Counted from the stretch's first letter, positions 1,485 to 36,296 are shown. The stretch is DNA of 64,000 bases from an uncultured Candidatus Binatia bacterium (GCA_965243855.1 CBDEWE010000003.1:3206288-3270287), one strand, 5' to 3'. Numbers and translations: made by a program. Notes: generated from the sequence alone by a model not told the origin.

Positions 1485-1512
1485 GCACAGTTTGACAAAC
1501 ATGGCTACAAAA

Positions 1513-1549
1513 AGAGGGATGGGTTCATACCCGTCTCTCTTTTCCTTTT
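1513..1549 (+). terminator. rho-independent terminator-like hairpin after TBDR1
   Basis: AGAGGGATGGGT-tcat-ACCCGTCTCTCT stem followed by TTTTCCTTTT. Confidence 0.45.
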
Positions 1550-1615
1550 GTCTGATTTCTATCGTCCCCTCAAAACGGTAATGGTGTTGTAGCGAGAATC
1601 CGTTATCAAAAAGAG

Positions 1616-4192
1616 ATGAAGAAATCGAGAACGTGGACATACGGCCTGCTGATCGCTCTGCTCCTTAGCCTGGGAGTCGCGCCGGTCGGAGCCCAGGACG
1701 CGGAACCCCCATTGGAGGCACGGCAAGAACAGGAGGGAATTGTCGAACTGGAAGGCGTCAGGGTGCTGGGCTCCCGTCATGCAGCGCGTTCAGCCCGGGA
1801 CTCGCTGGTGCCGGTAGACGTGATCCAGAGAGAAGACTTGCAGACCTACGGCATCCGGGACATGGACACGCTGCTGTCGGCCACTGTGCCGTCCTACAAC
1901 GTCAACCGGCGTGCCGGCGATGCCGCCGCACTGGTTCGTCCGGCCAATATGCGTGGCCTGCCGCCCGACTCCACCCTGGTGCTGGTCAACGGCAAACGCC
2001 GGCATCGCGCCGCGGTGATTACCTTCCTGGGCAACGGCATTTCGGACGGCGCGCAGGGGGCTGATATTTCGGTGATTCCGGCCATTGCGCTCAAGCGGCT
2101 GGAAGTGTTGCGCGACGGTGCTTCGTCCCAGTACGGCTCCGACGCCATTGCCGGAGCGTTGAATTTCGTGCTGCGCGACGACCCCGAGGGGGCCATGCTG
2201 GAAACGCGCTGGGGTCAGAACTACCAGGGCGACGGCGACAAGGTAAGTGTTGCCGGCAACCTCGGCCTACCGTTGACCGCGGCCGGCTTTGCCAACTTCA
2301 GCTTCGAGTTCATGAACGTCGACGAGACCAGCCGCAGTGTGCAGCGCAGCGATGCGCTGGAGCTGATTGCCGCCGGCAACGACCACGTTCGTCAGCCGGC
2401 GCAATTTTTCGGCACACCCGCCGTGCAGTATAATTACAAATTCTTTGGCAACCTGGGCCTGGACCTGACCGACAGGCATAGCCTGTATGCGTTTGGCAAC
2501 TATGCCGAACGTAAGGCCGAAGGCCACTTCTTTTTCCGCAATCCCAATACCCGGAGCGGGGTGTTCCGGGGCGACCCGCTTGAAGACGGTACGCCGACGA
2601 TCCGGGTGGCCGACCTGTCCGACAATCTCAAAGGCTGTCCGGTAGTACCAGCCAATCCGGCCGCAGACTATACCAATGTGAATCTGCCGGCCCACTGCTT
2701 TATTTTCAACGAACGCTTTCCGGGCGGTTTTGCGCCGCGGTTCGGTGGCTCTATGCAGGACTGGAGCGTCACCTTCGGCCTGCGCGGGGAACTGTCCGAC
2801 ATGCTGGACGGCTGGCACTACGACATGAGCGCCAGCTTCGGTCGAAACAGCATTGATTTCTTCATGCATAACACCATCAACCCCCAACTCGCCCATATGC
2901 AGACCGCCATTCCGACCTCGTACAAACCCGGCAGCTATAGCGAGTTCGACAAAGTGTTCAATTTCGACATCTCCAGGCCGTTCGACCTGGGCCTCTTTTA
3001 TTCCGCGTTAAACCTCGCCTTTGGGCTGGAGTACCGCGAAGAAGAATTTTCAGCAAACGCAGGTGAGCCGAACTCCTGGAAAATCGAAGAAAGCCTCGCC
3101 CGCCAGGGTTTTGGTATCGGCTCCAACGGCTTTCCCGGCCTCAGCCCCACGCATGCCGGTACGTTCAATCGGGGCAGTTATGCCGGCTATCTGGACCTGG
3201 AAGCCGAGGTGATCAAAAACCTGACCATCGGCCTCGCCGGACGGTATGAGGCGTATGAAGGCATAGCGGATACCCTGGACGGCAAGGTCTCCGCCCGCTG
3301 GCAATTCCTGGCCGATATGGCCGTACGCGGCTCGGTCGGTTCCGGCTTTCGCGCCCCGACTGTGGGCCAAGCGAACGTTCGCAATGTGACAACATCGCTC
3401 ATAAACGGCAGGCTGGCGGACGAAGCCACCCTCTCTCCCACCGACCCGATTGCGCGCCAGAAGGGCGGCAAGGAGTTGGAGCCGGAAAAATCGGTCAACT
3501 ATTCCGTCGGCACGGTCTTCAGCCTGGGTAAGCTGGATGTCACCCTCGACTATTACCGCATCAAGATGCAGGATCGCATCGGGCTGACGAAGACGCTGAC
3601 CCTAACCGGGTCGGATATAGCGTCACTCCTGGCCCAAGGAGTCGTGGACGCGAGCAGTTTTACCGGGGTACGGTATTTTACCAACGACTTTGATACCACC
3701 ACACAAGGTGTCGATCTCGTGGCGACCTACCCGCTGGAGACGTTCGCCGGCAGTACGCTATTCACCTTTGTGGGCAACTGGAACAACACCAAGGTTGACA
3801 GCCGCAATCCAGCCATCATCGACGATGGGCGAGTACGGCAGCTTGAAGACAATCTGCCGGAGTTTCGTTTCTCACTCACGAGTGACCACACCTACGGGCC
3901 GTGGCGGCTCCTGACCCGGCTGCATTTCTACGATAGTTTTTATGCGGCCTATCTAAGAGACTTGCCCATAGAGGCGGGTGAACGCTGGCTCATGGACGCG
4001 GAACTCTCGTACACGTTTATGAACCTGCCGTTCATGGGAGTGCTGACCCTCGCGTTCGGCGCCGAGAACCTATTCGATCAGTACCCGGCCAGAAATCCGT
4101 ATGCACGTCTCGCCGGCGCCAAATACCCAGCCTCGTCACCCTACGGCTTCAACGGCGGCTTCTACTACCTACGGGCTGGCTTCGAGTTTTAA
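1616..4192 (+). CDS. TonB-dependent receptor (858 aa)
   Basis: Signal peptide; TonB-box-like LEGVRVLGSR; plug motif RLEVLRDGASSQYGSDAIAGALNF; C-terminal ...YYLRAGFEF; RBS upstream. Confidence 0.85.
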   Translation: MKKSRTWTYGLLIALLLSLGVAPVGAQDAEPPLEARQEQEGIVELEGVRVLGSRHAARSARDSLVPVDVIQREDLQTYGIRDMDTLLSATVPSYNVNRRAGDAAALVRPANMRGLPPDSTLVLVNGKRRHRAAVITFLGNGISDGAQGADISVIPAIALKRLEVLRDGASSQYGSDAIAGALNFVLRDDPEGAMLETRWGQNYQGDGDKVSVAGNLGLPLTAAGFANFSFEFMNVDETSRSVQRSDALELIAAGNDHVRQPAQFFGTPAVQYNYKFFGNLGLDLTDRHSLYAFGNYAERKAEGHFFFRNPNTRSGVFRGDPLEDGTPTIRVADLSDNLKGCPVVPANPAADYTNVNLPAHCFIFNERFPGGFAPRFGGSMQDWSVTFGLRGELSDMLDGWHYDMSASFGRNSIDFFMHNTINPQLAHMQTAIPTSYKPGSYSEFDKVFNFDISRPFDLGLFYSALNLAFGLEYREEEFSANAGEPNSWKIEESLARQGFGIGSNGFPGLSPTHAGTFNRGSYAGYLDLEAEVIKNLTIGLAGRYEAYEGIADTLDGKVSARWQFLADMAVRGSVGSGFRAPTVGQANVRNVTTSLINGRLADEATLSPTDPIARQKGGKELEPEKSVNYSVGTVFSLGKLDVTLDYYRIKMQDRIGLTKTLTLTGSDIASLLAQGVVDASSFTGVRYFTNDFDTTTQGVDLVATYPLETFAGSTLFTFVGNWNNTKVDSRNPAIIDDGRVRQLEDNLPEFRFSLTSDHTYGPWRLLTRLHFYDSFYAAYLRDLPIEAGERWLMDAELSYTFMNLPFMGVLTLAFGAENLFDQYPARNPYARLAGAKYPASSPYGFNGGFYYLRAGFEF

Positions 4193-4280
4193 GCGGAGGA
4201 GCAGGTATTTTTCTGGCAAAAGAAACAGGAGTCTGTCAGGGCAGATGGATTGATTCAAACGCACTGGAGGGAGAGAGAAA

Positions 4281-6881
4281 ATGAAGACCAAACGATGGCA
4301 ATGTGGGGTGGTAGTGGGACTTTTGGTCGTAACGGGTGCGCTGACAGTCTCGGCCCAAGAGACGAGCCAGCCAGAGCCGGCCGCCACCCAAGACACCGAA
4401 CAACAGGAGTCTGTCGTGGGGCTTGAGTCCCTCAAGGTGATCGGCTCCCGCGTGGCGGGCCGCTCGGCCCAGGACTCCGTAGTGCCAGTGGACATTATTC
4501 AAGGCGAAGACTTACAGACCTACGGCATCCGGGACATGGACTCGCTGCTGTCCGCCAGCGTGCCGTCCTATAACGTCAACCAGCAGCCCATCAGCGACGC
4601 CGCTACCCTGATTCGCCCAGCCAACCTGCGCGGATTACCGCCCGACTCCACCCTGGTGCTGGTCAACGGCAAACGCCGCCACCGCGCCTCGGTCATCCCC
4701 GAATTTGGAGGCATTTCGAACGGGTCGCATGGGGCCGATATCTCCGCTATCCCCACCATTGCGTTGGATCGGGTGGAAGTCCTGCGCGACGGCGCCGCCG
4801 CCCAGTACGGCTCGGATGCCATCGCGGGGATTCTGAACTTCCGGCTGCGTGAAGACCGGGAGGGCCTGACCGTGCAGACCAGCTACGGCCAGAACTATCA
4901 CGGTGACGGCGACAGGGTGAATGTGGCTGCCAACCTTGGACTGCCATTAACCGACAACGGCTTTGCCAACTTCAGCTTTGAATTCACCAACGCGGACGAG
5001 ACCAGCCGGAGTGCGCAGCGCGCCGATGCCCGGGGCTTGATTGAAGCCGGTAACGAGCATGTACGCCGGCCGGCGACCCAGATTTGGGGAGCGCCGGAGG
5101 TGCAGTACGACTATAAGTTTTTCGGCAACCTGGGGTTAGACCTGGAGGAGATCAACAGCCGTGCATATGCGTTTGGCAACTACGCGGAGCGTCGGGTGGA
5201 GGGCGGCTTCTTCTTTCGTAATCCCAACACCCGCGGCGGAATCTTCGATGGTGGCGAGAATCTCTTGGTCGCCGACCTGTCAGACGACCGTCGTGGCTGT
5301 CCTCCAATTGCGAAGAACCCCACGGCCGATTATGTCGCGGCATTGGCGGGCTTGCCCGACCACTGCTTCGCCTTTAACGAGCGGTTTCCGGGCGGGTTTA
5401 CGCCGCGTTACGGTGGAGTCGTCGAGGACTGGAGCATCACCTTTGGCCTGCGCGGGGAGGTTGAGAGCGCGTCGGCACTGCTCAATGGCTGGTTCTATGA
5501 TGCCAGCGCCAGCTTCGGTCACAACAGCGTGGACTTCTTCATGCATAACACCATCAACCCCCAACTCGCGGCCATGCGCACGAATATCCCGACCTCGTAC
5601 AAACCCGGCGGTTACCGGGAGTTTGACAAAGTGTTTAACCTGGACATCTCTCGGCCGTTCGATGTGGGGCTGTTCCATTCGGCATTGAATTTCGCCTTCG
5701 GGCTGGAGTACCGCGAGGAAGAGTTCGAGATTAAATCCGGCGGAGAAAATTCCTGGTATGTTGACAACAGCCCCGGCGGCCTAGCGGCTCAGGGCTTCGG
5801 CATCGGCTCCAACGGGTTTCAAGGCTTCGGGCCGGATATCGCCGGTACGTTCAATCGGGGCAGTTATGCCGGTTATCTAGACCTGGAAGCCGAGGTGATC
5901 AAAAACGTGACCCTCGGCGTCGCCGGGCGGTATGAGGCGTATGAAGGGATAGCGGATACCCTGGACGGCAAGGTCTCCGCCCGCTGGCAGTTGGTGGAAG
6001 CTCTTGCCGTGCGCGGTTCGATCAGCTCGGGCTTTCGCGCCCCGACCGTAGGACAGACCAACTACCGCAAGACCTCGACCTCATTAGAGGGAAACCGGCT
6101 GGTGGACAACGCGATCCTGCCGCCGGACCATCCGGCGGCAGTCCTGAAAGGCGGCAAGCAACTGGAGCCGGAAAAGTCGATCAATTATTCCGTGGGTACG
6201 GTCTTCAGCCTGGGCGACCTCGACGTGACCGTCGACTACTACCGCATCAAGGTGCAGGGCCGCCTCGCCTTGACGAGCAATCTCAAGCTGACGCAGGCGG
6301 ATATCGACACATTACTGGCCCAGGGTATTTCAGACGCGCGCAGCTTCGCGGGGGTGAACTTCTTCACCAATGATTTCGACACCACCACCCAAGGCGTCGA
6401 TGTCGTGGCAACCTATCCGCTCCACACTTTCGCCGGTCAGACCCTACTGACCTTCGTGGGCAACTGGACCGACACCCAGGTGGATAGCTTTAACCCGGAT
6501 ATCATCAATTCCAGGCGACGGCGACAGTATGAAGACGCCCTGCCGGAGTTTCGCTTCTCCCTCACGGCTGACCACACCTGGGGGCCGTGGCGATTTCTGA
6601 CCCGACTGCATTACTACGACGGCTTTTTCGAGGATATCGTTGAGGCTGGCTTGACCTCCATAAACGGGGAGCGCTGGCTCACCGATATGGAACTCTCCTA
6701 CACCTTCAGGAACCTGCCGTTCATGCAGATGGCGACCTTTGCCCTCGGCGCGGAAAACCTGTTCGACCAGTATCCGCGCAGGAGTCGCTGGGCACCTGTG
6801 CTCGGTAATAAATATCCACCCAACTCACCCTACGGCTTCAACGGCGGCTTCTACTATCTCCGAGCCAGCTTTGAGTTCTAG
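4281..6881 (+). CDS. TonB-dependent receptor (866 aa), paralog
   Basis: Same architecture (signal peptide, LESLKVIGSR, plug motif RVEVLRDGAAAQYGSDAIAGILNF, terminal Phe); RBS GGAGGGAG. Confidence 0.85.
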   Translation: MKTKRWQCGVVVGLLVVTGALTVSAQETSQPEPAATQDTEQQESVVGLESLKVIGSRVAGRSAQDSVVPVDIIQGEDLQTYGIRDMDSLLSASVPSYNVNQQPISDAATLIRPANLRGLPPDSTLVLVNGKRRHRASVIPEFGGISNGSHGADISAIPTIALDRVEVLRDGAAAQYGSDAIAGILNFRLREDREGLTVQTSYGQNYHGDGDRVNVAANLGLPLTDNGFANFSFEFTNADETSRSAQRADARGLIEAGNEHVRRPATQIWGAPEVQYDYKFFGNLGLDLEEINSRAYAFGNYAERRVEGGFFFRNPNTRGGIFDGGENLLVADLSDDRRGCPPIAKNPTADYVAALAGLPDHCFAFNERFPGGFTPRYGGVVEDWSITFGLRGEVESASALLNGWFYDASASFGHNSVDFFMHNTINPQLAAMRTNIPTSYKPGGYREFDKVFNLDISRPFDVGLFHSALNFAFGLEYREEEFEIKSGGENSWYVDNSPGGLAAQGFGIGSNGFQGFGPDIAGTFNRGSYAGYLDLEAEVIKNVTLGVAGRYEAYEGIADTLDGKVSARWQLVEALAVRGSISSGFRAPTVGQTNYRKTSTSLEGNRLVDNAILPPDHPAAVLKGGKQLEPEKSINYSVGTVFSLGDLDVTVDYYRIKVQGRLALTSNLKLTQADIDTLLAQGISDARSFAGVNFFTNDFDTTTQGVDVVATYPLHTFAGQTLLTFVGNWTDTQVDSFNPDIINSRRRRQYEDALPEFRFSLTADHTWGPWRFLTRLHYYDGFFEDIVEAGLTSINGERWLTDMELSYTFRNLPFMQMATFALGAENLFDQYPRRSRWAPVLGNKYPPNSPYGFNGGFYYLRASFEF

Positions 6882-6892
6882 CGGAGAAAAGG

Positions 6893-9469
6893 ATGAAAAC
6901 CATACGGTGGCCCTGCTGGGGAACAGCGGCGCTCTTCATCCTGCTGGGAGCAGTGACGGCCAGACCGCAGGAAGTGGAATCGCCCGCGGAGGTCGTCGGG
7001 CTTGACACCTTGCAGGTTGTGGGGTCGCGTCTGGACAGGCGTTCGGCCCAAGACTCGCCAGTGCCGGTGGACATCATTCAGGGGGAGGACTTACAGACCT
7101 ATGGCATCCGGGACATGGACGCCCTGCTGTCCGCCACCGTCCCGTCCTATAACGTCAACCAGCATCCCATCGGCGGGGACGCCACCTTTGTACGACCGGC
7201 TAATCTGCGCGGAATGCCGCCCGACTCCACACTGGTGCTCATCAACGGCAAACGCCGCCACCGCTCTGCCGTTATTGCCTTCTCCGCGGACGGCAGCAAT
7301 CGCGGGACGCAGGGCGCCGACCTGTCTGTCATCCCGGCCATCGCACTGGAGCGGGTCGAAGTCCTGCGCGATGGGGCCGCGGCCCAGTACGGCTCGGACG
7401 CCATCGCCGGTATCCTGAACTTCAAGCTGAAGGAGGCGTCCGATGGCCTGTCGCTCCACACCAGTTGGGGCCAGACCTACCACGGTGACGGCGACAAGGT
7501 GAATGTCGCCGCCAACCTGGGTCTGCCGCTGACCGACAACGGTTTTGCCAACTTCAGCTTCGAGTTTCTGAACGCCGACGAAACCAGCCGCAGTATACAG
7601 CGCGACGACGCGCGGGGGCTGATCGAAGCCGGCAATATGCATGTGCGCCGACCCGCGGCCCAGATCTGGGGGGCGCCCGAAATCCAGTTCGACTACAAGT
7701 TCTTCGGCAACCTCGGCCTGGACCTGGAGGCGCTCGACGCCCAGCTGTACGCCTTTGGCAACTACGCCGAGCGTAAGGTGGAGGGCGGCTTCTTTTTCCG
7801 TAACCCCAACACGCGCGGCGGGATATTCAGGGGCGACCCGCTCGGAGACGGCACGCCCACCGTCCGGGTGGCCGACCTGTCCGGCACTGGCCTCGGCTGT
7901 CCCGCCGTGCCTGCCAACCCGGCGGCCGACTACACCGGCGTGAATCTGCCCGAGCACTGCTTCCTCTTCAACGAGCGCTTTCCCGGCGGTTTCACACCTC
8001 GTTTTGGCGGCTACCTCCAGGACTGGAGCATCGCCTTTGGCCTGCGCGGGGAATTGGAAGGCGCATACGGCTTGCTGAACGGTTGGTCATACGACGCCAG
8101 CGCCAGCTTCGGCTACAACAGTATTGATTTCTTCATCCACAACACCATCAACCCGCAGCTGGCCGCCATGCGCACCGCTATTCCCACGAAATACCGACCC
8201 GGTGGAAACGCGCAGTTTGAGCGGACGTTCAACCTGGATATTGCCAGACCCCTGGATATCGGCCTCTTCCACTCTCCACTGAACGTGGCCTTCGGATTTG
8301 AGTATCACATGGAGGAGTTCGAACAGAAAGTTGGGGAAGCGCAGTCCTGGTTCATCGATGAAAACCTGAGAAATCAGGGTTTTACCATTGGCTCCAACGG
8401 GTTTTCGGGCTACCCGCCGCAGTCGGCCGGCGTGTTCGAACGCAACAACTATGCGCTGTATCTGGACCTGGAAGCTGAAGTCATACAGTCCCTCAGCCTC
8501 GGCCTGGCCGGGCGATATGAAAACTTCGACAGTGCCATAGGAGAGTCGCTGAACGGCAAGGGGTCGGTCCGCTGGCAACTGCTGGACGCTCTGGCCCTGC
8601 GCGGTTCGGTCGGTTCGGGCTTCCGCGCCCCAACACCGGGACAGGCGAACATCCGGAAAATCAACTCGCAGTTTACCACCGCAGGCCTAGTCGACCAAGG
8701 CATTTTCCCCTCGCATCACCCGGTCTCGGCCTTCTTCGGAGGCAGGCCGCTGGAGTCGGAAAAATCGGTCAACTATTCCGTCGGCAGCGTGTTCAACTCG
8801 GGTGACTTCAGTCTGACCGTCGACTATTATCGGATCAAAATTCAGGATCGCATCGGACTGACGCAGGATTTCAGAGTCCCGGACGAGCAGCGGGCGGCCT
8901 TCAACCGCCTCGCTCCCGACGCGAGTACCCTCACCTCGGTGCGCTACTTCACCAATGCATTTGACACGACCGCGCAAGGGGTCGATATCGTGGCGACCTA
9001 TCCGCTGGCAACGCGGGTCGGTGACACCATGTTGACCTTTGCCGGCAACTGGAACCGGCTGAGGCTCGACCGCTTCGACCCGCACGTCATCAATACCAAG
9101 CAGGTGCATCAGATAGAGGATGGCTTGCCGCAATTCCGGTTTTCGCTGACCGCGGATCACACCTACGGGCCGTGGCGCTTTCTGACCCGCGTGTATTTCT
9201 ACGACGAATTTTTTGAAGCCCACGCCAACACCGAAACGCGTTTCCTGACCGCCGGGGAGCGGTGGCTGATGGATGTCGAAGCCTCGTACACCCTGCTGAC
9301 GCTGCCCTTCACCCAGGCAGTGATTCTTGCAGTAGGCGCGGAAAACGTGTTCGACACCTACCCGCGCAGAAATCCGTACGCGCGCGATACGGGCGCGAAA
9401 TACCCGGAATCCTCACCCTACGGCTTTGGCGGCGGCTTCTACTACGTACGGGCTGGCTTTGAGTTTTAA
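6893..9469 (+). CDS. TonB-dependent receptor (858 aa), paralog
   Basis: Same architecture (LDTLQVVGSR, plug motif, ...YYVRAGFEF end); stop overlaps stop of convergent gene. Confidence 0.85.
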   Translation: MKTIRWPCWGTAALFILLGAVTARPQEVESPAEVVGLDTLQVVGSRLDRRSAQDSPVPVDIIQGEDLQTYGIRDMDALLSATVPSYNVNQHPIGGDATFVRPANLRGMPPDSTLVLINGKRRHRSAVIAFSADGSNRGTQGADLSVIPAIALERVEVLRDGAAAQYGSDAIAGILNFKLKEASDGLSLHTSWGQTYHGDGDKVNVAANLGLPLTDNGFANFSFEFLNADETSRSIQRDDARGLIEAGNMHVRRPAAQIWGAPEIQFDYKFFGNLGLDLEALDAQLYAFGNYAERKVEGGFFFRNPNTRGGIFRGDPLGDGTPTVRVADLSGTGLGCPAVPANPAADYTGVNLPEHCFLFNERFPGGFTPRFGGYLQDWSIAFGLRGELEGAYGLLNGWSYDASASFGYNSIDFFIHNTINPQLAAMRTAIPTKYRPGGNAQFERTFNLDIARPLDIGLFHSPLNVAFGFEYHMEEFEQKVGEAQSWFIDENLRNQGFTIGSNGFSGYPPQSAGVFERNNYALYLDLEAEVIQSLSLGLAGRYENFDSAIGESLNGKGSVRWQLLDALALRGSVGSGFRAPTPGQANIRKINSQFTTAGLVDQGIFPSHHPVSAFFGGRPLESEKSVNYSVGSVFNSGDFSLTVDYYRIKIQDRIGLTQDFRVPDEQRAAFNRLAPDASTLTSVRYFTNAFDTTAQGVDIVATYPLATRVGDTMLTFAGNWNRLRLDRFDPHVINTKQVHQIEDGLPQFRFSLTADHTYGPWRFLTRVYFYDEFFEAHANTETRFLTAGERWLMDVEASYTLLTLPFTQAVILAVGAENVFDTYPRRNPYARDTGAKYPESSPYGFGGGFYYVRAGFEF

Positions 9470-12764: not shown

Positions 12765-13607
12765 TTAGGGTAATCCGGCGCCGGGTACCTCAACCTGGAC
12801 CGTTTCGATAGCAGCTTCAGACTTCCCCTGGGCCAACTCCTCCACGGTTGTGGCTGCGGTCAGCATGAAGAGCGTACGACGCCCTTCCCCGCCCAACATG
12901 CAGGCAACGGCCCGTTTGTCCGGGACAGGAATACGATGCGTGACCTCTCCGCCGTCTTTGACCCGAATAAATTCACCACTCCCAAACGAACTCACCCAGA
13001 CCGCCCCTTCGGCGTCCAGACAAATCCCGTCAGGAGTCGCTTCCCCCAGCTGGGCAAATACGCGCCGGTCCGACAGCGAACCGTCGGCGGCGATGCTGAA
13101 AGCGCTCAGACAGTTCGCAAATGTCTCGGCAACAATGAAGGTGCTCCCGTCCGGACTGATCACGCTGCCATTCGGGAAGCTCAGACCGTCCGCGACCACC
13201 CGAGTCTGTCCGTCCGGCGTGACCATGACAATGTTCGCCGGCTGGGCTTCTTCACCGCCCATCAAGTCGTAGCCAAAGCTCCCGATATAGGATCGGCCCT
13301 GGGCATCAACGACCATATCATTGATATCACCCCGGACGAGCGCAGAGACATCTGCGACTTCCGCGAGACCGTTCGGGTCCTGCCGGAGCAGTTTCCTATC
13401 GTGCATAGAGACGATGAGCAGGCGTCCATCCGGCAGAAAGCCCAGTCCCGACGGGCGCTGTGGCACCGTTGCGACCAACTCGGTGTTGCCCTGCGCGTCA
13501 ACCGTGAGCACTTTCTCGGCAAACATGTCGGAAACCCAGAGTTTACCGTCGTGCCAACGCGGGCCTTCAAGAAAAACAAATCCATCTGCGAGAAGCTGCG
13601 GAGTCAT
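12765..13607 (-). CDS. SMP-30/gluconolactonase/LRE family protein
   Basis: 280 aa; N-terminal ...LADGFVFLEGPRWHDGKLWVSD and beta-propeller repeats typical of SGL family. Confidence 0.8.
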   Translation of the reverse strand: MTPQLLADGFVFLEGPRWHDGKLWVSDMFAEKVLTVDAQGNTELVATVPQRPSGLGFLPDGRLLIVSMHDRKLLRQDPNGLAEVADVSALVRGDINDMVVDAQGRSYIGSFGYDLMGGEEAQPANIVMVTPDGQTRVVADGLSFPNGSVISPDGSTFIVAETFANCLSAFSIAADGSLSDRRVFAQLGEATPDGICLDAEGAVWVSSFGSGEFIRVKDGGEVTHRIPVPDKRAVACMLGGEGRRTLFMLTAATTVEELAQGKSEAAIETVQVEVPGAGLP

Positions 13608-14521: not shown

Positions 14522-15151
14522 ATGACGGCAACCGCAGACCCGCATCAAATTACGAGCGTGGAACAGCTTCGCGAACGCATTGGATCACCGAGTGAGCTTG
14601 TCCCGCATAAGCTCTGGACCGAGTTGGACGAGTCGTGCATGGACTTCATCAGACGCTCGCCGTTTCTCCTGCTCGCCACGGCAGACGCCGAAGGCAATCA
14701 GGATGTCTCGCCCAAGGGGGACGGGCCGGGGTTTGTCTGTATTGAGGATGCACACACACTGCTCATCCCGGACCGGGCGGGCAACAAGCTGGTCTTCGGG
14801 CTGACCAATATCATTGAGAATCCCCATATTGGCCTGATTTTCCTGCTGCCGGGAACACCGGAAACCATGCGGGTCAACGGCACGGCTGAGCTTACGGCCG
14901 ACCCTGAAGTCCTGGAGCGCCTGTCCGCGCGTGGGAAACCCGCGGTGGTTGCCATCCGGGTCCATATCAAAGAAGTGTTCTACCACTGCGCCAAGGCCTT
15001 TATCCGGTCACAACTCTGGAAGCCCGATACCTGGGAGGAGCGCCTGAAGATTTCGTTCGGCAAGATTCTGGCAGCCAAGATGGGCGGCGATACCGGCATG
15101 GCCAACAAGATCGACGAATTTGTCGAACAGGACTATCGGACCAATCTGTAG
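14522..15151 (+). CDS. pyridoxamine 5'-phosphate oxidase family (FMN-binding split barrel) protein
   Basis: ~210 aa; HIGLIFLLPGTPETMRVNGTAELTADPEV pattern; ATG with RBS AAAGGAGAGGG (ORF from 14504). Confidence 0.6.
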   Translation: MTATADPHQITSVEQLRERIGSPSELVPHKLWTELDESCMDFIRRSPFLLLATADAEGNQDVSPKGDGPGFVCIEDAHTLLIPDRAGNKLVFGLTNIIENPHIGLIFLLPGTPETMRVNGTAELTADPEVLERLSARGKPAVVAIRVHIKEVFYHCAKAFIRSQLWKPDTWEERLKISFGKILAAKMGGDTGMANKIDEFVEQDYRTNL

Positions 15152-15174
15152 ACTTCCTCCGCCCTCCTCGCATT

Positions 15175-15229
15175 CCCTCTCCCTCTGGGAGAGGGCTAGG
15201 GTAAGGAGACCTGCTTCTTACAGCAGGTC
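15175..15229. terminator. pair of hairpins between convergent genes (CCCTCTCC-ctctg-GGAGAGGG; GACCTGC-ttcttaca-GCAGGTC)
   Basis: Two GC-rich stem-loops; second overlaps the stop codon of the minus-strand gene. Confidence 0.5.
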
Positions 15230-16111
15230 CAACCCCCTCCGCTCCCATTCCATGGCCACCACCCGGCCCAACCCCGACTCCGTAATATATAAGGTCCTCG
15301 AATCGACACCGCCAAAGGCGATATTCGTGACCGCTCTGTCCTCACTCGGAATCCGGTCGACCTGCTGCCCGTGCGGATCAAAGACAATAATGCCCCCTCC
15401 CAGCACACCACAGACCAGAACATAGCCTGCTTCATCCAGACAAAAGCCATCGGGATAATGGCCGGTCGGCAGTTGACAGAATGGTCGGCGCTGGTCGAGT
15501 TCACCTGGGGCAAGAGCGGGAAAGGCACACAGGCTGGCGGCAAAGGTTTCCGCTACGAGCAGGGTTTTACCGTCCGGGGTGAGGCCGATGCCGTTTGGAT
15601 GTTGAAGATTGGTAGCGACACGCCGAATCCAGGTCCCATCCGGACTGGCGTAGTAGACGCTGCCCTGGCGCCGCGTTGGTGCATCCATTGGTTCAGGCCG
15701 CGTGGGATCGCGCTGGATCGGATCGGTAAAGTAGAAATTCCCTTCAGCATCAAACACCAAATCGTTTGGTGCGCTGAGTTGCACGCCGTCACATGAGGTG
15801 TATAAGCGTTCGACCTTACCCTCGGCGTCAATCCGCTCAAGGCGTCCGGTCTCGTAATCCGGAGCCGGTCCAACGGGCAGCCCCTTGCGCCAGCGAAAGC
15901 CGCCGTTATTCGTGACGTATAGGGCTCCGTCCGGCCCTCGGGCGGCCCCGTTCGGACCACCACCCGGAGTGACGAAGGTGGAGAGTGTTCCGTCAGGCGC
16001 AATTTTCCGAACGCGGCCCCCACGGATTTCCACACAATACACGCTGCCGTCCGGGTCACAGACCGGACCTTCCGGGAATGCCAAGCCGGTTGCAATGATG
16101 GTGTGACTCAT
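15218..16111 (-). CDS. SMP-30/gluconolactonase/LRE family protein
   Basis: 297 aa; N-terminal TGLAFPEGPVCDPDGSVYCVEIRGG typical SGL start. Confidence 0.8.
   Translation of the reverse strand: MSHTIIATGLAFPEGPVCDPDGSVYCVEIRGGRVRKIAPDGTLSTFVTPGGGPNGAARGPDGALYVTNNGGFRWRKGLPVGPAPDYETGRLERIDAEGKVERLYTSCDGVQLSAPNDLVFDAEGNFYFTDPIQRDPTRPEPMDAPTRRQGSVYYASPDGTWIRRVATNLQHPNGIGLTPDGKTLLVAETFAASLCAFPALAPGELDQRRPFCQLPTGHYPDGFCLDEAGYVLVCGVLGGGIIVFDPHGQQVDRIPSEDRAVTNIAFGGVDSRTLYITESGLGRVVAMEWERRGLDLL
16047..16092. repeat. 46-bp perfect direct repeat, copy A (inside 5' coding end of SGL gene)
   Basis: CCGTCCGGGTCACAGACCGGACCTTCCGGGAATGCCAAGCCGGTTG identical to 17847..17892, exactly 1800 bp away. Confidence 0.9.
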
Positions 16112-16145
16112 AAGGGCGAGCGTACCCGGCGGACGCTCAAAAATT

Positions 16146-16691
16146 TCAGGCCGCTTGCTGCTCTTTTTGTTTCAGCAACTTGCCAGCAATCTGGTCAATA
16201 ACCTGGTCGGCCAGCACGCGGACTTCATCCTCGAGCTTGGGCTGAATAGGATGCGGGACCAGAATGGGCTCATACTGAGGCATACCAAGAGCCGCACATT
16301 GGGCGTGCGCGGCGCTCAGAAACTCCGTGGTCGTGATATTTGCAGTCGGAATCCCTCTCTCTTCCAGCGCGATGACATCGTGCGAACTGCACGATATACA
16401 GCCGCCTCAATCGCTGAGCGCTTCAATGACCGCGTCGCACTTTTCTTGTAGCTCCTGCTGAATAGCTTCAGCCGCAGGCCGACCCGGGGTCAGTTTCGTC
16501 CGCCGCAGCACCTCCTTGACACCGTACTGCTCGCGCAGGATTTCCTCCAGGCGGTCCAGGAAGAATGCGCCTTTTGCCTTGTTAATATCCAAGAGACCAA
16601 TCGTGGTACCGGACAGGCTGTCCAGCCGGGTCGCAAAGACCTTGGGCGATTGGTCCGCCTGCGAGGTCGGGTCTAGTAATACGGTTCCCAT
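16146..16691 (-). CDS. candidate selenoprotein with U-G-G-C (UxxC) motif; in-frame TGA at 16407..16409 read as Sec (UGSC-family-like)
   Basis: ORF 16407..16691 stops at TGA, but the same frame stays open 87 more codons with good coding character to TGA at 16146; SECIS-like hairpin 10 nt after the UGA; 16 bp after the upstream gene. Confidence 0.6.
16375..16398 (-). promoter_or_regulatory. bacterial SECIS-like stem-loop downstream of in-frame UGA
   Basis: mRNA UGA-GGCGGCUG-UAUAUCGUGC-AGUUC-GCACGAUGU: 9-bp stem (one G-U), 5-nt loop containing GU, starting ~10 nt after UGA. Confidence 0.5.
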
Positions 16692-16706
16692 ACATTCCTC
16701 CTTTAC

Positions 16707-17795
16707 TTATGTATGAATCTCCTTTGTCGTAATGGTACTCCCGGAGCTCCCCCGGACCAAGCCTGGAACAGCCGCAGAAAAACGACCAGCCGTTCCACCC
16801 GCGACAACAATAAGAATACTCTCCGGTGCGGGAAACTTCGGATAGAGCGTGTCATCAGTCGGCGGTTCGGTCTGGGCGTTGACGCCGGCCAACATACTCA
16901 CTCCAGCGCCCTCTCCGCCGTTGACCCCAGGCCGCAGTTCACGCAGCGGGCGACGGATGTGTTCAAATAAAAATTGACGGAGATCATTTTTAGACCATCC
17001 ATCCTGGGCAAAGGTCTTGGCATGCTCCGGTCCGACAATCAGCGCCGTATCCGAGAACACCGGAAAATTCTTGTGATTCCAGACCGAGGCCATAGTCCAG
17101 CCAAGCGAGAGGGCTAACTGCTCTGCACTGCGACTGGCATGGTCATTGATCTGAAGCGGGGAGTGACCACCAAACAGGGTGACGGTATTCTGTTCCGGAC
17201 GAAAACCTTTCTCGACGTGCAGCGGCTCCCACGGACTCTCCTCCTCGGCCTCGCCAATACAGAACGTAAATTGGGCTGGATGGCCCAGGGTTGCCTTGCA
17301 AATCTCTTGGGGCTTTGCGCCGCCAATGTTGAGAATGATCAGGCGCAACGCACGCCCGATGGTGGCATTCGCCCGAAATCCATGGCCCAGGGCATTATGC
17401 CCGCAATTCACCCCAATGGTATGGCGTATGGGACCGTTAATAATCGTCAGTGGGGTTGCCGAGAATGTGGTGACATTAATAGCGTGGGCCGCAAACTGTT
17501 CTTCACACAGGGCTTCCACCGCGGCAACGACAACCGGAAAATACGACGCCTGACACCCCGCCATCACCGCATTAATCGCAACTTTTTCAAGACTGGCCGG
17601 TCCATAGTTGGGTCCCACCGTCCCCAAGAGCTCTTGTGGGTCGCGGTCCACTGTGGCGAGCAGCGCCATAACACGCTCTGCGGTTGGCGGAACAACCGGC
17701 AGCCCATCGGTGAGCCCACTTGAAAAGAGGGCTTCAAAAGGGTCGTTCTCCTGAATATCGATGGGTTGTGAATGGAATGCGGCGGCGTCCGCCAT
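16707..17795 (-). CDS. hypothetical protein (362 aa), first gene of the selenoprotein operon
   Basis: Long ORF with strong RBS GGAGGGGAG; no family recognised by eye. Confidence 0.6.
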   Translation of the reverse strand: MADAAAFHSQPIDIQENDPFEALFSSGLTDGLPVVPPTAERVMALLATVDRDPQELLGTVGPNYGPASLEKVAINAVMAGCQASYFPVVVAAVEALCEEQFAAHAINVTTFSATPLTIINGPIRHTIGVNCGHNALGHGFRANATIGRALRLIILNIGGAKPQEICKATLGHPAQFTFCIGEAEEESPWEPLHVEKGFRPEQNTVTLFGGHSPLQINDHASRSAEQLALSLGWTMASVWNHKNFPVFSDTALIVGPEHAKTFAQDGWSKNDLRQFLFEHIRRPLRELRPGVNGGEGAGVSMLAGVNAQTEPPTDDTLYPKFPAPESILIVVAGGTAGRFSAAVPGLVRGSSGSTITTKEIHT

Positions 17796-17846
17796 GTCTC
17801 CCCTCCAAGCCTGCCCAGCCTTTCACCCTTGCTGTCCGGCTGTCAA

Positions 17847-17892
17847 CCGTCCGGGTCACAGACCGGACCTTCCGGGAATGCCAAGCCGGTTG
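17847..17892. repeat. 46-bp perfect direct repeat, copy B (5' leader of the 16707..17795 operon)
   Basis: Identical to 16047..16092; in the SGL reading frame it encodes TGLAFPEGPVCDPDG followed by a stop. Confidence 0.9.
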
Positions 17893-17968
17893 GCAATAAC
17901 AGCGCAACTGAAGCAGAGTGCATGGCAATCAAGAAGTCAGCGCAATGCAGACTGAATCGGAGATAAAA

Positions 17969-17985
17969 TAAACATTCAGAATGTT
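17969..17985. promoter_or_regulatory. 17-bp perfect palindrome AAACATTCAGAATGTTT in AT-rich divergent promoter region
   Basis: Lies in the ~200-bp AT-rich island (17940..18140) between the minus operon and the cytochrome gene; TTGACA at ~18040. Confidence 0.4.
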
Positions 17986-18184
17986 TCTAGCCTTTATATA
18001 CATATAACTGTCTGTATTTAATTATGAAATGAAATATACTTGACACCCCCTAAATTAGGTGTTTATGAGTATTTCGTATTCATTATTCGTTAAAGCGACT
18101 TTCAGAAAATCCCTAATGGCGATCCACGATCACATGTGGATTACGGGGGCAGAACTCTCAGAAATATAGACAGATTCCTTATCC

Positions 18185-19620
18185 ATGCTCCGCCTCTTCC
18201 AGTCTCTTATTATCCTGCAACTGGCTCTCCTCTTCGCTCTGCCCGTAGGAAGCTTTGCACAAACCCCACCTGGGGAGCGCTCCGCCATGAGCGATCTCCA
18301 GATGAGCCAAGAAGATATTGCCAACGAGCGCGTCTCGCCCTATACGTTGCGCCGCAAGGGTGGCCTGATCTTCTCAACCCCGTTTACCAAGCTTGATGGG
18401 TTCGGGCACGCACCCTTTAGCGCGCACGAGCCTGATTTTCTTGAAACACGTCCCACTCTTCAGGGAAACGGGGCTTTTTTACGCGTCAACGGGCTCGACG
18501 CTCAGACCTGCATGGAATGTCACTCGGTCCTGAGCAATGCGGTTGTGCCTTTCCGGTTTGGTGTCGGTGGGGTTGGATCAGGCAGTTCGAATGTGATGTT
18601 TAAGCCGACATGGATTGACCCAACGACCGGCGGCAAAGAAAATTTCAACGGTCGGTTCATTAACCCTCCCTTTTTATTCGGCTCGGGTGGAGTGGAGCTG
18701 TTGGGAAAAGAAATGACCCTGGATTTGCAGCAGCTCAGAGCGCAGGCGCAACAAAGCCCCGGAACACGGGTCTCCCTAGTTTCCAAAGGGGTCTCTTCGG
18801 CAGCATATCCTGCCAACAGGACGGCACGTGCGATACCTCACAGGTCGAAGGGGTGAATACCGATCTGGTGGTTCGCCCCTTTGGCCGCAAAGGTGAGTTC
18901 GCCACCGTCCGTGCATTCGATGTGGAAGCAATGGAGTTCCACTTTGGCATGGAGCCCGTGGAACTGGTTGGGGACGGGGTGGACAGGGATGGCGATGGCG
19001 TGATCAACGAGGTCACTATCGGCCAGATATCCGCCTTACATATTTTTAATACGACCCTCACGCCGCCGATTATGCACCTCAGCCGTGAAGCCCAAGACGG
19101 ACAGGAGCTGTTTGCACACATCGGCTGTGCGGACTGTCATATCCCGTCCCTGACAACCAACAGTCCGATGCTGACCTATAGTTTTCCCGAAGTGCCGACA
19201 GACCCGACCGCCAACGTCTTCTACCGGGTCGATCTGAGAGACTATCCCACGTTTTTTGAGGAGGCGGCGCAGGGGGGCCTCGTGGTCCCGCTGTTCGCCG
19301 ACCTCAAACGGCATGACATGGGGTCGGCGCTGGCCGAATCATTCGGAGAAGAACTGGCCGCCCAGTTCACCACCGCCCGGCTGTGGGGCGTGGCCGATAC
19401 CGCCCCCTACCTCCACGACGGACGAGCGCTGACCCTCACCGAGGCGATTACGCTCCACGGCGGGGAGGCGCAAGCGGCCCGCGATGCGTTTGTCGATACG
19501 CTGGACACTCAGGAAAAGGAGACCCTCTTAACCTTTCTCCGCTCGCTCAGGACCCCTCACGCAGACGACGTGGCCCCTGATCTTCGGTCGGAGAGTAACG
19601 GAAGAGACTGGGAACATTAG
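18185..19620 (+). pseudogene. di-haem cytochrome c peroxidase-like protein (two CxxCH), interrupted by a frameshift near 18750-18765
   Basis: ORF1 18185..18856 (signal peptide, CMECH) and ORF2 18853..19620 (GCADCH) are in different frames; ORF2 frame reads through from 18664; shift maps near a CCCC run at 18757-18760. Confidence 0.55.
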
Positions 19621-19711
19621 AGCAAAGAACGATGCGGTGTAGCGCGGCTCTCTCTTCCCCTTTAGGAGTGCGGGCTGGAAGCCCGCAGGCGACCATCCTG
19701 GCCGCCCTCCC
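19621..19711 (+). repeat. ~90-nt 3'-UTR repeat element, copy A (hairpins GCGGGC-tggaa-GCCCGC, GGCGACCA..TGGCCGCC)
   Basis: About 90% identical to reverse complement of 22381..22469; starts immediately after stop of the cytochrome gene. Confidence 0.75.
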
Positions 19712-19889
19712 AGGAGGAGAGCCGCCCACCTCCCCTCCCAGGCCGTTTGGAGCAAGCCCCTGTCCTTCCCGACGAGAGCGGACTGGTACGGCTACAATTT
19801 ATCGTGAAACGCTCCAGCAGAATCTCCCCTCCAGGCGCGCTTCTCGGTATCCTCTCGGACACGGCTATCAATCTTATGGGTCGGCCTGC

Positions 19890-20444
19890 TCAGTCGAGCG
19901 GTTTTTCTTTAAACACATCGTCCGGACTATACTGCACCTGAAACGCCTGAAGCGCCTGATTGAAGGACGGGTCTTCTTCCGTATCGAGCAGCGCGTCCGC
20001 CGCGGGCGGATCGAGCCGGGCCACGGCCGCCCGCCAGTGCTCCAGTTGCGACAGAGACAGGGGAACGGACACGGTGTAGTGCAGTTCGGTATCCTCACTG
20101 AGCAGGATAACCGTCAGCTTCTCCCGTCGGACGAGCTTCCGCAGAATGGCGACGTCGCTCGCCTGTCTCGGGTTGAGATAAAACACGCCTCCCTTGCTCC
20201 CCCCAAACGTCGGGTGCAGTTGGTAGCCGATGGCCACCACCCATATCCCCTTTGGGCTCTGCCACGTACACAGGCTCAGGCTGAGCGGCAGGGGCGCGTC
20301 AATAAACCAGTCCAGGTCTTCGACCCGGCTGACAACGGCCAGCTCCTGTGTACCCTCACGGTCAATAAACCGGACGGAGTACAGGGGTTCTTCCATTAAA
20401 AGCAGCCAGCTTTCTCGGTTAATCACCACACCGGTCGGTTGCAT
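19890..20444 (-). CDS. hypothetical protein (~184 aa)
   Basis: Protein-like C-terminal 184 aa from MQPTGVVINRESW...; ORF extends upstream to 20657 but that part looks non-coding. Confidence 0.45.
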   Translation of the reverse strand: MQPTGVVINRESWLLLMEEPLYSVRFIDREGTQELAVVSRVEDLDWFIDAPLPLSLSLCTWQSPKGIWVVAIGYQLHPTFGGSKGGVFYLNPRQASDVAILRKLVRREKLTVILLSEDTELHYTVSVPLSLSQLEHWRAAVARLDPPAADALLDTEEDPSFNQALQAFQVQYSPDDVFKEKPLD

Positions 20445-20598
20445 TGAGGATGCTCCTCTCCTTACGCGCTTGACCCACAGGCACGCATCTATCATACATG
20501 GCACTCGCATGGCAGGTTCGACGCCGGAACGCCCAGTGGCCACAGCGGGGCGTTCGGTGTAGGGAGCGTAGACACCGGTCATCATACAAGGAGGGACC

Positions 20599-21885
20599 AT
20601 GGCGAGGCCGGTCAGGTATAAGATCGTTGGACTGCTGTTCTCCGGAACCATCATCAACTACATCGACCGGGTGAATATCTCTGTGGCCGCGCCGGTTATC
20701 ATGGCCGACTCCGGCTGGAGCAAGAGTGAGTTCGGGATGGTCTTTTCCGCCTTCCTGGTTGGCTACGCCGTGCTCCAGTTGCCAGGCGGCCTGGTGGCCG
20801 ACCGCTGGAGCGCACGGAAAGTGTTGGCCCTCGCCTTTTGTGGCTTCTCGCTTTTCACAGCCCTGACCCCGCCGGCCATTGCCGCCTTTTGGCTGCTGCT
20901 CAGCGCGCGTTTTCTGGTCGGCATGTTTGAGTCCGTGACTATTCCGGCGCTCACCTCTGTCAACGCTCGGTGGATTCCGCGGGCCGAGTTTGGCCGCGCG
21001 CAGACCCTGAGCGTGTCCGGCGTGACGGTCGGCCAGATGATTGCCTACCCGCTCACCACCTGGATTATTCTCCACTTCTCCTGGCAGCTCGTCTTCTATT
21101 TTAACGCCCTGCTCGGCTTTGTCTGGGCGGCGCTGTGGCTGTGGTCTTCCACGGACACGCCCGGTGAGCATCCGAAGATTGATGCAGCGGAACGCGCTTA
21201 TATTGAATCAAACCTGTCCCCCCGTCCGGCCGTTCCGCTGCCGTTGTGGACCGTGTTTTCCAGCGCGTCGCTGCTGACCGTGACCCTGGCCTTTATGTGT
21301 TATGCCTACGTGCTGTGGATGTTTCTGTTCTGGTTTCCGACCTATTTGGTCGAGGCGCGTGGCATGTCTCTGGGGGTCATGGGCACGGTCGGCATTTTTA
21401 TGCACGGCGCGTCGTTCCTGGGTGTTATCGGGGCCGGGATGCTGTCAGACTGGCTGCTGCGCAACGGCTGGAGTGCGCAGTTCGCCCGCGTGCGCTTTGG
21501 TGCCTTCGGCCTCACCCTGGCCCTGCCCTGTCTGGTGCTGGCGGCTCAGACCGCCTCGCCGCTGATCTGTACCGTTTTTCTGGTTCTTTTTTACGGGCTG
21601 TTCAGTATGGGCATCGGGGTGTTTACCACGGTTGCCCTGGAGTTTAATCCGCACCAGGCCGGCGCTATCTTCGGCATGATGAATACACTCGGGACCTTTG
21701 CTGGGGTTCTGGGTCCCTGGTCCGCCGGACAGATGATTGAGTACAGCGGAGGAGATTGGACTATACCGCTGTTTGTCGCGACCGGGGTGGGAGCGGTCAG
21801 TGCCCTTATCCTATTTGTGGTCAAGATCAGGAAGATCGAGATAGAGGACGTTGCCTTGGCGGAGGCAGCGGAAAGCGGTTCGTGA
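20599..21885 (+). CDS. MFS transporter (anion:cation symporter-like)
   Basis: 428 aa, 12 predicted TM segments, N-terminal GTIINYIDRVNISVAAPVI... and LPGGLVADRWSARKV MFS signatures. Confidence 0.85.
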   Translation: MARPVRYKIVGLLFSGTIINYIDRVNISVAAPVIMADSGWSKSEFGMVFSAFLVGYAVLQLPGGLVADRWSARKVLALAFCGFSLFTALTPPAIAAFWLLLSARFLVGMFESVTIPALTSVNARWIPRAEFGRAQTLSVSGVTVGQMIAYPLTTWIILHFSWQLVFYFNALLGFVWAALWLWSSTDTPGEHPKIDAAERAYIESNLSPRPAVPLPLWTVFSSASLLTVTLAFMCYAYVLWMFLFWFPTYLVEARGMSLGVMGTVGIFMHGASFLGVIGAGMLSDWLLRNGWSAQFARVRFGAFGLTLALPCLVLAAQTASPLICTVFLVLFYGLFSMGIGVFTTVALEFNPHQAGAIFGMMNTLGTFAGVLGPWSAGQMIEYSGGDWTIPLFVATGVGAVSALILFVVKIRKIEIEDVALAEAAESGS

Positions 21886-22380: not shown

Positions 22381-22469
22381 GGGAGGGCGGCCATACTGGC
22401 CGCCATGCGGGCTTCCAGCCCGCACTCCTAAAGGAGGAGAGAGGCGCGCTACACAGCAGCGTGATTTGC
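22381..22469 (-). repeat. ~90-nt 3'-UTR repeat element, copy B (inverted relative to copy A)
   Basis: Reverse complement aligns to 19621..19711; lies ~55 nt downstream of the CaiB-family gene stop in sense orientation. Confidence 0.75.
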
Positions 22470-22524
22470 TCTAGGGTGAGGGGGTTCTCAACGGGGAACA
22501 GCTCTCGGCTGGCTTGCTCCCGAG

Positions 22525-36248: not shown

Positions 36249-36280
36249 TAATCCTGTAATCCTGTAATCCTGTAATCCTG
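36249..36280. repeat. 8-bp tandem repeat (TAATCCTG)x3 + TAATCCTA, preceded by inverted copy CAGGATT
   Basis: Direct reading of 36235..36285. Confidence 0.85.
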
Positions 36281-36296
36281 TAATCCTAATTGGTCT

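Follow-up and report, generated by a model that had tools for sequence, protein, structure and literature searches.

A 46-bp direct repeat around a selenoprotein operon of an uncultured Binatia bacterium: probable scar of an old rearrangement, lately re-copied from the live gene

Introduction

Homology-facilitated illegitimate recombination, in which one homologous anchor is combined with a join at microhomology, is known from naturally transformable bacteria and from E. coli conjugation (PMC3240628), and the duplication-random loss model of gene order is classic for animal mitochondrial genomes (e.g. PMC5745709). Both are compared here with a locus in a 64-kb stretch of DNA from an uncultured Candidatus Binatia bacterium (GCA_965243855.1, CBDEWE010000003.1:3206288-3270287; this whole stretch is called the window). 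At this locus a pair of perfect 46-bp direct repeats encloses an operon of two genes, the first encoding P362, a 362-aa protein, and the second a selenoprotein of the UGSC-containing family. One copy of the repeat (copy A) lies in a live SMP-30/gluconolactonase/LRE-like gene (SGL), and the other (copy B) upstream of P362. An earlier note on this DNA saw in the arrangement the likely insertion of a cassette near the start of SGL, with a duplicated junction.

It is part of general bacterial genetics that a gene can undergo ectopic conversion with a paralogue or a pseudogene fragment in its vicinity, and that short repeats evolve in concert. The target-site duplications of transposons and insertion sequences (IS) typically measure 2-14 bp and are accompanied by terminal inverted repeats and a transposase. 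In model bacteria, RecA-dependent recombination could plausibly delete the DNA between two stretches of 46 identical bp at a distance of 1.8 kb. The UGSC-containing selenoproteins were described by Zhang and Gladyshev 2008 (PMC2398784; NF041046, PF24696); their function is unknown, and the family offers no explanation for the repeat.

We consider it likely that the repeat is the scar of a rearrangement, namely a fragment of SGL (SGL') that was left by an old event and has lately been re-copied from the live gene, and that it has no mobile-element ends. The feature is thus a new, well-resolved case of known processes: illegitimate recombination or duplication, decay of a pseudogene fragment, and ectopic gene conversion.

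Results and Discussion

The two copies of the repeat

Copies A and B (Table 1) are the only two occurrences of the 46-mer CCGTCCGGGTCACAGACCGGACCTTCCGGGAATGCCAAGCCGGTTG in the window; both are on the + strand, with 0 mismatches, and none of 100 dinucleotide-preserving shuffles yielded a match. The perfect 46-bp direct repeats 1800 bp apart reported in the earlier note are therefore exact and non-random. Its placement of copy A inside the 5' coding end of the SMP-30/gluconolactonase gene was likewise correct, the peptide read from this copy in the SGL frame being TGLAFPEGPVCDPDG; in the same frame copy B gives, as had been stated, the same peptide and then a stop (TGA). The AT-rich island described just past copy B (17940-18140) is also real, with 33.8% GC as compared to 58.4% for the whole window.

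The facts stated in the earlier note are all correct, and its interpretation is supported in part. Copy B had been assigned to the 5' leader of the operon; it does lie upstream of P362, 51 nt from the start codon, but it adjoins a conserved box, TTGACAGC, from the upstream side and falls outside the leader of the promoter that this box would mark. The 1754 bp between the copies had been said to contain exactly the two-gene cassette; P362 and the UGSC gene are indeed the only genes there, and the interval also includes the promoter and leader of the operon, SGL nt 1-19 and, between UGSC and SGL, an intergenic hairpin of 34 nt.

Table 1. Coordinates of the features of the locus, numbered from the first letter of the window.
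Feature	Position	Strand	Remarks
SGL (SMP-30/gluconolactonase/LRE-like) gene	15218..16111	(-)	PF08450, E = 5.6e-49
Copy A	16047..16092	(-)	codons 8-22 of live SGL; exact match, inside the open reading frame (ORF) 15218-16111
UGSC-SGL intergenic region with hairpin GAGCGT..ACGCTC	16112..16145	(-)	stands in place of the putatively ancestral DHOR/AT-rich/leader segment
UGSC-family selenoprotein gene	16146..16691	(-)	in-frame TGA (selenocysteine, Sec) at 16407-16409, motif U-G-G-C
P362, first operon gene	16707..17795	(-)	ORF
Operon promoter and leader (P), putative	17796..17846	(-)	TTGACAGC (17839-17846), conserved AAGGGTGAAAGGCT, ribosome-binding site GGAGGGGAGA ahead of P362 ATG
26-codon ORF through SGL'	17843..17923	(-)	MHSASVALLLPTGLAFPEGPVCDPDG, then stop; ATG at 17923-17921, TGA inside GGTTGACAGC
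Copy B	17847..17892	(-)	probably recently homogenised 46-nt part of dead SGL 5' fragment; exact match
SGL', SGL 5' pseudogene fragment, 66 nt	17847..17912	(-)	equivalent of SGL nt 1-65 plus an inserted base at 17893
Remnant of presumed original SGL leader and AT-rich divergent intergenic region (DHOR/original SGL start)	17913..18184	.	33.8% GC at 17940-18140
Di-haem oxidoreductase (DHOR, PF06537) gene	18185..19620	(+)	two ORFs, 18185-18856 and 18853-19620, with a 4-nt overlap
P', second and decayed copy of the promoter region (spacer, TTGACAGC, leader to ribosome-binding site)	19823..19889	(-)	directly after O255 stop
O255, 255-aa ORF, function unknown	19890..20657	(-)	conserved left neighbour of the locus

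Relatives of the locus were collected by scanning one genome per species with the SGL protein, which gave 78 loci, the closest of them in uncultured Candidatus Binatia (89-94% protein identity). Four further loci (L079, L157, L158 and L159) were added by a metagenome scan and exact-protein look-ups; the former returned mostly distant SGL genes without the cassette on short contigs, and a single new close locus, L079. The distance between copies A and B is exactly 1800 in L005, 1799 in L008 and ~1798 in L004 (from BLAST start coordinates). A special meaning of the round spacing of 1800 was considered and rejected: relatives show it as well, and it is simply how long the conserved cassette is.

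Copy B belongs to a decayed 5' fragment of SGL

The homology between the two sites reaches further than the perfect repeat. Beyond copy B there is a 1-nt insertion, and positions 17894-17912, which follow it, can be aligned to SGL nt 1-19, 8 of the positions being mismatched. Six other genomes (L003, L004, L005, L008, L013 and L079) carry this fragment at the same junction, decayed to varying degree, and the A and B copies of these and of the window were aligned. As observed in this alignment, SGL' ends immediately before TTGACAGC, and the junction (GACGG followed directly by TTGACAGC) is identical in all seven carriers. SGL nt 1-65 is therefore present as a truncated piece of a neighbouring gene, one end of which lies at a junction common to all carriers, as is expected of a rearrangement scar.

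Over 65 nt, the fragment differs from the SGL gene of its own genome by 3 mismatches in L005 and in L013, 7 in L008 and in L079, 13 in L004 and 30 in L003; in L003 it is largely unrecognisable, and a different sequence takes the place of its 5' half (L003 1-748). Since SGL' is both shared by several species and decayed, the duplication must be old and is no assembly artefact. In L005, L008, L013 and L079 the fragment begins ATGAGT, reaching back to the SGL ATG, and the leader ahead of it (ending in CAGCGCTAGACAGACGGACAT) is the leader that precedes intact SGL in the cassette-free form of the locus (type III, below). A core leader motif, GCGCTACACAGAC, is present upstream of copy B and also precedes SGL in L159, the locus of ancestral-looking order. 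This shared leader indicates that SGL' represents the first SGL start, still in its old surroundings, and that copy A opens the SGL copy accompanying the operon.

In L007 (3007-4317) no SGL' is seen; an unrelated 328-aa ORF is found there, and only the last ~75 nt of DHOR are kept. The interval between O255 and the operon promoter thus turns over repeatedly.

Mosaic identity points to recent gene conversion

Copies A and B of the window differ by 8 mismatches and 1 indel over the first 19-20 nt and by 0 over the next 45-46, a contrast which is significant (Fisher p = 5e-4) even on a conservative count of 6 mismatches. The limits of the identical tract are the 1-nt indel on one side and the end of homology, at TTGACAGC, on the other. 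The two parts of SGL' also differ in their affinities. The 5' part has 5 mismatches to the L004 fragment as compared to 8 to the window's own copy A, and the window and L004 fragments share a TTGCGC variant and the loss of the ATG. The 3' part shows 0/45 differences to its own copy A but 6/45 to its closest counterpart, the L004 fragment. An identical and a diverged tract are thus found within a single repeat pair, discordant with the orthologous copies, as is the mark of gene conversion. In copy A the window is like its nearest relatives, L001 and L027, which argues for transfer from A to B. The perfect 46 nt accordingly point to a recent short-tract conversion, A to B, on an old and decaying fragment. 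L005 is an example of the opposite direction, B to A: ACA and CCTGTCTG, both of the fragment type, are found in its copy A. The locus is like known cases of ectopic conversion in this mosaic identity and in that transfer runs both ways in different genomes, the window being a case of A to B and L005 one of B to A; it is unlike them in its very short substrate (65 nt) and in showing no sign of a purpose such as antigenic variation.

These data bear on the possibility that the perfect identity is an artefact of assembly or polishing, with copy B homogenised by mis-mapped reads or, at the extreme, the whole duplication produced by a mis-join. The source is probably a metagenome-assembled genome, and the SGL and P362 proteins of the window have no exact match in the public collection with which they could be compared. 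However, the arrangement recurs in six independent assemblies, a result that goes against reading the repeat as an assembly duplication; they include records titled as complete chromosomes, namely L005 (OZ246888.1), L008 (OY763426.1) and L013 (OZ244620.1), and contigs of other metagenome-assembled genomes (L004, L079). Moreover, the identical tract is only 46 nt long with unique flanks, so that ordinary reads would anchor correctly, and signatures of conversion are seen in L005 as well. Mis-assembly can thus be ruled out as the source of the arrangement but, in a formal sense, not for the final few bases of identity, and as an explanation of the perfect identity we hold it to be highly improbable.

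Repeated conversion that keeps B like A could alternatively mean that copy B is retained for a function, as a short upstream ORF, as a shared binding site co-regulating the operon and SGL, or as a maintained recombination substrate by which populations could turn the selenoprotein genes off. The fragments of L005, L008, L013 and L079 do keep the ATG and an open 22-codon frame ending at a TGA in GGTTGACA, and a 26-codon ORF runs through the fragment of the window. Against this, decay of the fragment is far advanced in L003 and L004, its ATG is gone in L004 and in the window, it is absent from 10 operon-bearing loci, and in L007 it has been replaced altogether; a deletion between the copies would furthermore be irreversible and hence no switch. 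Retention for function is accordingly very doubtful.

Four forms of the locus survive among relatives

The neighbourhood is conserved across the relatives and consists of an MFS transporter, O255, a variable part, SGL, a PPOX-type flavoprotein, an enoyl-CoA hydratase (ECH) and a second SGL paralogue (SGLp). Four versions of the variable part are observed. The ancestral-looking form, with the order O255, P362, UGSC, DHOR (on the opposite strand), SGL, is represented by one contig, L159; in L018, of the same ancestral-looking group, a 35-aa DHOR relic with a CxxCH motif lies between UGSC and SGL. Type I (O255, P362, UGSC, SGL) has neither DHOR nor the duplication and is found in L001, L002, L006, L010, L011, L012, L014, L015, L025 and L027. 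Type II, with the order O255, DHOR (opposite strand), AT-rich region, SGL', P362, UGSC, SGL, is that of the window, L004, L005, L008, L013 and L079, and in part of L003. In type III (L009, L157 and L158) O255 is followed by a DHOR remnant, the AT-rich region and an intact SGL, and there is no cassette. Alternative parent and product arrangements of the kind that a rearrangement should leave are thus available in L159, in ten type I loci, in three type III loci and in the window with six type II loci. Type II is confined to the main clade and type III to the L009 clade.

The earlier note had proposed to look for an uninterrupted SGL abutting the AT-rich region without a cassette. Such loci exist: in L009, L157 and L158 a region like window 17913..18184 leads, with the leader, straight into an intact SGL. 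However, the recent insertion which they were to support is contradicted by the ten syntenic loci that have the operon without the duplication, the outgroups L012, L014 and L015 among them; this is the outcome which the earlier note itself had named as refuting its reading. Further outgroups and distant relatives agree: P362-UGSC stands at this locus in L159 in addition to these three outgroups, and P362, UGSC and SGL are also adjacent in the more distant Binatia L018 and L021. The selenoprotein genes are therefore old residents of the locus and no recent insertion. In the outgroup L015 (4766-5950), P362 has an internal deletion and UGSC matches as two pieces in different frames; the cassette appears to be decaying in place there.

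A mobile two-gene selenoprotein cassette, inserted in the 5' end of SGL with a 46-bp att-like or target-site duplication and provided with dedicated excision, can be weighed on the same data. Like att-bounded islands, integron cassettes and transposons, the locus has direct repeats around a small gene set (exactly two genes) and a cassette-free version in which the AT-rich region abuts SGL; P362-UGSC pairs also occur elsewhere without SGL, beside other genes, in L163 (4001-5673) and L164 (1469-2877). Unlike these elements it has no attC and no terminal inverted repeats, and the flanked genes are ancestral residents. The only genes of the interval are P362 and UGSC, neither with a recombinase domain, and no integrase or transposase ORF is present between the repeats; no inverted repeat pairs the two cassette ends. 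The repeat itself, of 46 nt (65 nt ancestrally), is a gene fragment beginning at a start codon. What was really duplicated are 65 nt counted from the SGL ATG; this unit is decayed in other species, and the inner end of the repeat falls on the conserved promoter box of the operon. The flanking gene order is syntenic across species and of housekeeping type, the duplication-free operon is the common and the outgroup state, and in L159 the cassette lies upstream of DHOR and without an SGL fragment. What remains of the duplicated junction seen in the earlier note is the layout SGL 5' end, cassette, SGL, with copy B as a leftover of the gene's start; the repeat is no mobile-element junction. A mobile selenoprotein cassette is a tempting but wrong reading, to which we assign next to no probability, and it can now be removed.

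The putative operon promoter and its decayed second copy

The octamer TTGACAGC is kept in all 17 aligned loci and in L159. Together with a downstream AAG(G/A)(G/A)TG(A/C)AAGG motif and the ribosome-binding site, it is found in every operon-bearing locus, L018, L021 and L159 included, and because of this conservation it is probably the -35 box of the operon's own promoter (P).

A second, decayed copy of this region (P') follows O255 directly, with the box in the form TTGATAGC and the relic running up to GGAGGGGAGA. The score of its local alignment to the promoter of L011 or L001 was equalled by 0 of 2000 shuffles. P' is also found in L009 and L157; in L004, L005, L008, L013, L079, L007 and L158 it has been lost through a deletion that joins the end of O255 to the DHOR stop. 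The window consequently contains two interleaved pairs of direct repeats, in the order P', SGL', P, SGL.

The join between SGL' and the promoter region can be examined in L004. The fragment closes there with GGCCCACACGG, a sequence that matches the type I spacer of L027 (GGCCCACACGA) in its 3' half. This match places the original join at about SGL nt 55 and mid-spacer, within a patch of partial similarity (SGL ending in TGTGACCCGGACGG, the spacer in CTGGCCCACACGA). A join in partly similar sequence would be typical of illegitimate, microhomology-guided joining.

The segment 19621-19832, between P' and the DHOR stop, was tested as a possible relic of P362/UGSC and rejected; its 3' ~100 nt are a dispersed repeat. 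Copies of this ~100-nt repeat, with 82-86% identity and in both orientations, lie in the window at 19621-19711, by the DHOR stop, and at 22381-22470, and in relatives at L001 1602-1698 and at L025 1733-1832 and 9438-9489. It may be an element of the repetitive extragenic palindromic (REP) or miniature inverted-repeat transposable element (MITE) type.

A possible order of events

Taken together, these results are consistent with a history in four steps, whose order we infer from the comparison of loci. The ancestral order would have been O255, promoter-P362-UGSC, DHOR (opposite strand), SGL, as retained in L159. Loss of DHOR would have given type I (O255, P362-UGSC-SGL), and loss of the cassette type III (O255, P', DHOR, SGL). 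A single illegitimate join of SGL at ~nt 55-65 to the short spacer upstream of the TTGACAGC box would then have created type II, with the order O255, P', DHOR, AT-rich region, SGL', promoter-P362-UGSC, SGL. In the route that we favour, a type III segment would have entered a type I chromosome, crossing over by homology on the side of O255 and MFS and being joined illegitimately at its other end. We lean to this route because the alignment of P' to the L009/L011-clade promoter is no worse than that to the window's own P, and because type III is found only in the L009 clade and type II only in the main clade. Afterwards, SGL' would have decayed in most lineages, with ectopic gene conversion between it and the live gene. 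Such a course resembles homology-facilitated illegitimate recombination in that a single step from two existing locus versions suffices without a recombinase gene, and in that the two sequences are partly alike over a short patch where they were joined; it differs in that donor and recipient are here deduced from comparison, and a tandem duplication fits the anatomy almost equally.

According to that alternative, the tract from the spacer and promoter through P362-UGSC-DHOR to SGL ~nt 55-65 was doubled in a genome of ancestral order; P362-UGSC was then lost from the first copy, of which P' is what remains, and DHOR with the leader from the second, of which the hairpin remains, and types I and III arose later by P'/P and B/A recombination, respectively. 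Such a scheme predicts the two interleaved repeat pairs in the observed order (P', B, P, A), and it also accounts for the full 18-nt spacer in P' as opposed to the 3' half alone at the junction of B and P, as expected of such a junction. It starts from an order that is actually found (L159) and requires no imported second allele. It agrees with duplication-random loss in the permuted order (cassette-DHOR-SGL to DHOR-cassette-SGL) and in having relics, P' and SGL', where lost duplicates are expected, but the present chromosome is bacterial, none of the loci shows the complete duplicated intermediate, and the relics may stem from two alleles. More events are required, moreover, and P' scores 28 against L011 (reached by 0/2000 shuffles) but only 23 against the P of the window (reached by 19/2000). 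The spacer of ingroup type I loci is 18 nt long, like that of outgroup type I, and so looks ancestral and not regenerated; the confinement of type II to one clade and of type III to another also speaks against this scheme. Tandem duplication followed by loss is thus, in our judgment, a possible but rather unlikely source of the scar.

Several points weigh against the history of rearrangement and re-copying favoured here. The trees of the flanking genes (neighbour-joining, five segments), built to see whether carriers of the duplication form one clade, conflict, with types I and II intermixed; recombination between lineages has therefore blurred the history behind the proposed order of events and route. 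By either route the repeat would be a rearrangement scar. A strict sigma-70 consensus scan of 15100-18300 found no promoter, so that the -35 assignment of TTGACAGC comes from its conservation. Whether L009-type loci are survivors from before the rearrangement or products of excision between B and A would hang on one or two diagnostic bases. Finally, the perfect identity is known from one assembly, and the comparison genomes are all metagenome-assembled.

Could the repeats excise the operon?

Deletion of the cassette by recombination between the repeats is plausible, and 46 identical bp may suffice for it in a RecA-dependent manner. If B and A recombined, the product would be type III-like, with an SGL frame open from the ATG at 17923-17921. 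The 5' end of SGL in L009 looks chimeric, the first 26 nt being of the fragment type and followed by the gene-type CCGGTG; this fits excision, on the strength of one or two bases. A recent acquisition of an empty allele by L009 was considered and rejected, as its AT-rich leader is only ~76% identical to that of the type II genomes; from the same figure it follows that the event producing type III is old. In the MFS, O255, SGL, PPOX and ECH segments L009 shows 85-92% identity to the type II genomes, and 96% in one SGLp comparison.

A stronger proposal would be that SGL' is a standing recombination substrate, kept gene-like by conversion, through which populations repeatedly shed P362-UGSC, for example under selenium scarcity. 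If this were true, each deletion would bring SGL back under its original AT-rich promoter, L009 and L158 would be recurrent excision products, and the selenoprotein operon would possess a built-in mechanism of one-way loss. We regard this as very unlikely.

The value of the locus is modest and lies with studies of rearrangement mechanisms and with annotators. It offers a small case study of the reshuffling of a bacterial operon neighbourhood, in which four locus versions survive in uncultured Binatia and relics record the steps; SGL' and the split DHOR deserve pseudogene labels. The by-products are perhaps more useful. P362 represents a very large uncharacterised family, often the partner of UGSC, with no known domain or solved structural relative, and the operon link to an SMP-30/gluconolactonase-like gene may hint at the function of the UGSC protein.

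Genes of the locus and other repeats in the window

The product of the middle gene scores 147.7 bits with NF041046 (cutoff 125) and matches PF24696 with E = 1.5e-46. It thus agrees with the UGSC-containing selenoproteins in scoring above the curated cutoffs, in having a TGA at the Sec position of the family motif and in the hairpin that follows; it departs from them in the motif, which is here U-G-G-C instead of U-G-S-C. The hairpin, a stem-loop AUCGUGC-AGUUC-GCACGAU after the UGA (16340-16415, minus strand), may be a bacterial selenocysteine insertion sequence (SECIS) element; its fold energy is ordinary (z = -0.33). A tRNA scan of the window found no tRNA, tRNA-Sec included, and Rfam at gathering thresholds gave no match over the same 64 kb.

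P362 has no family match in Pfam or NCBIfam and no sequence match in the PDB. Its homologues number at least 8000, all of the 8000 scored candidates having E <= 1e-5. In L160 (4001-5771; the protein is named Candidatus Rokuibacteriota by a source) the gene next to a P362 homologue, in the place of UGSC, encodes a short-chain dehydrogenase. The hairpin segment between UGSC and SGL is common to all cassette-bearing loci of the close clade, with or without copy B; in L159 DHOR occupies this position. DHOR is one 560-aa ORF in L005, and its split in the window would be due either to a frameshifted pseudogene or to a sequencing error. The second, divergent SGL-family paralogue (280 aa, ~30-37% identity to the first) is encoded at 12765-13607 on the minus strand, 1.6 kb downstream, and is kept in all syntenic relatives.

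Other repeats are present elsewhere in the window. A short tandem repeat with the 8-nt unit TAATCCTG occupies 36249-36287. Window 1-9000 contains many exact repeats of 27-43 nt at offsets of ~2674-2708, 5274 and exactly 8000 nt, among them an exact 29-nt repeat at offset 8000 (18-46 and 8018-8046); these may be read as tandem paralogous genes of ~2.68 kb.

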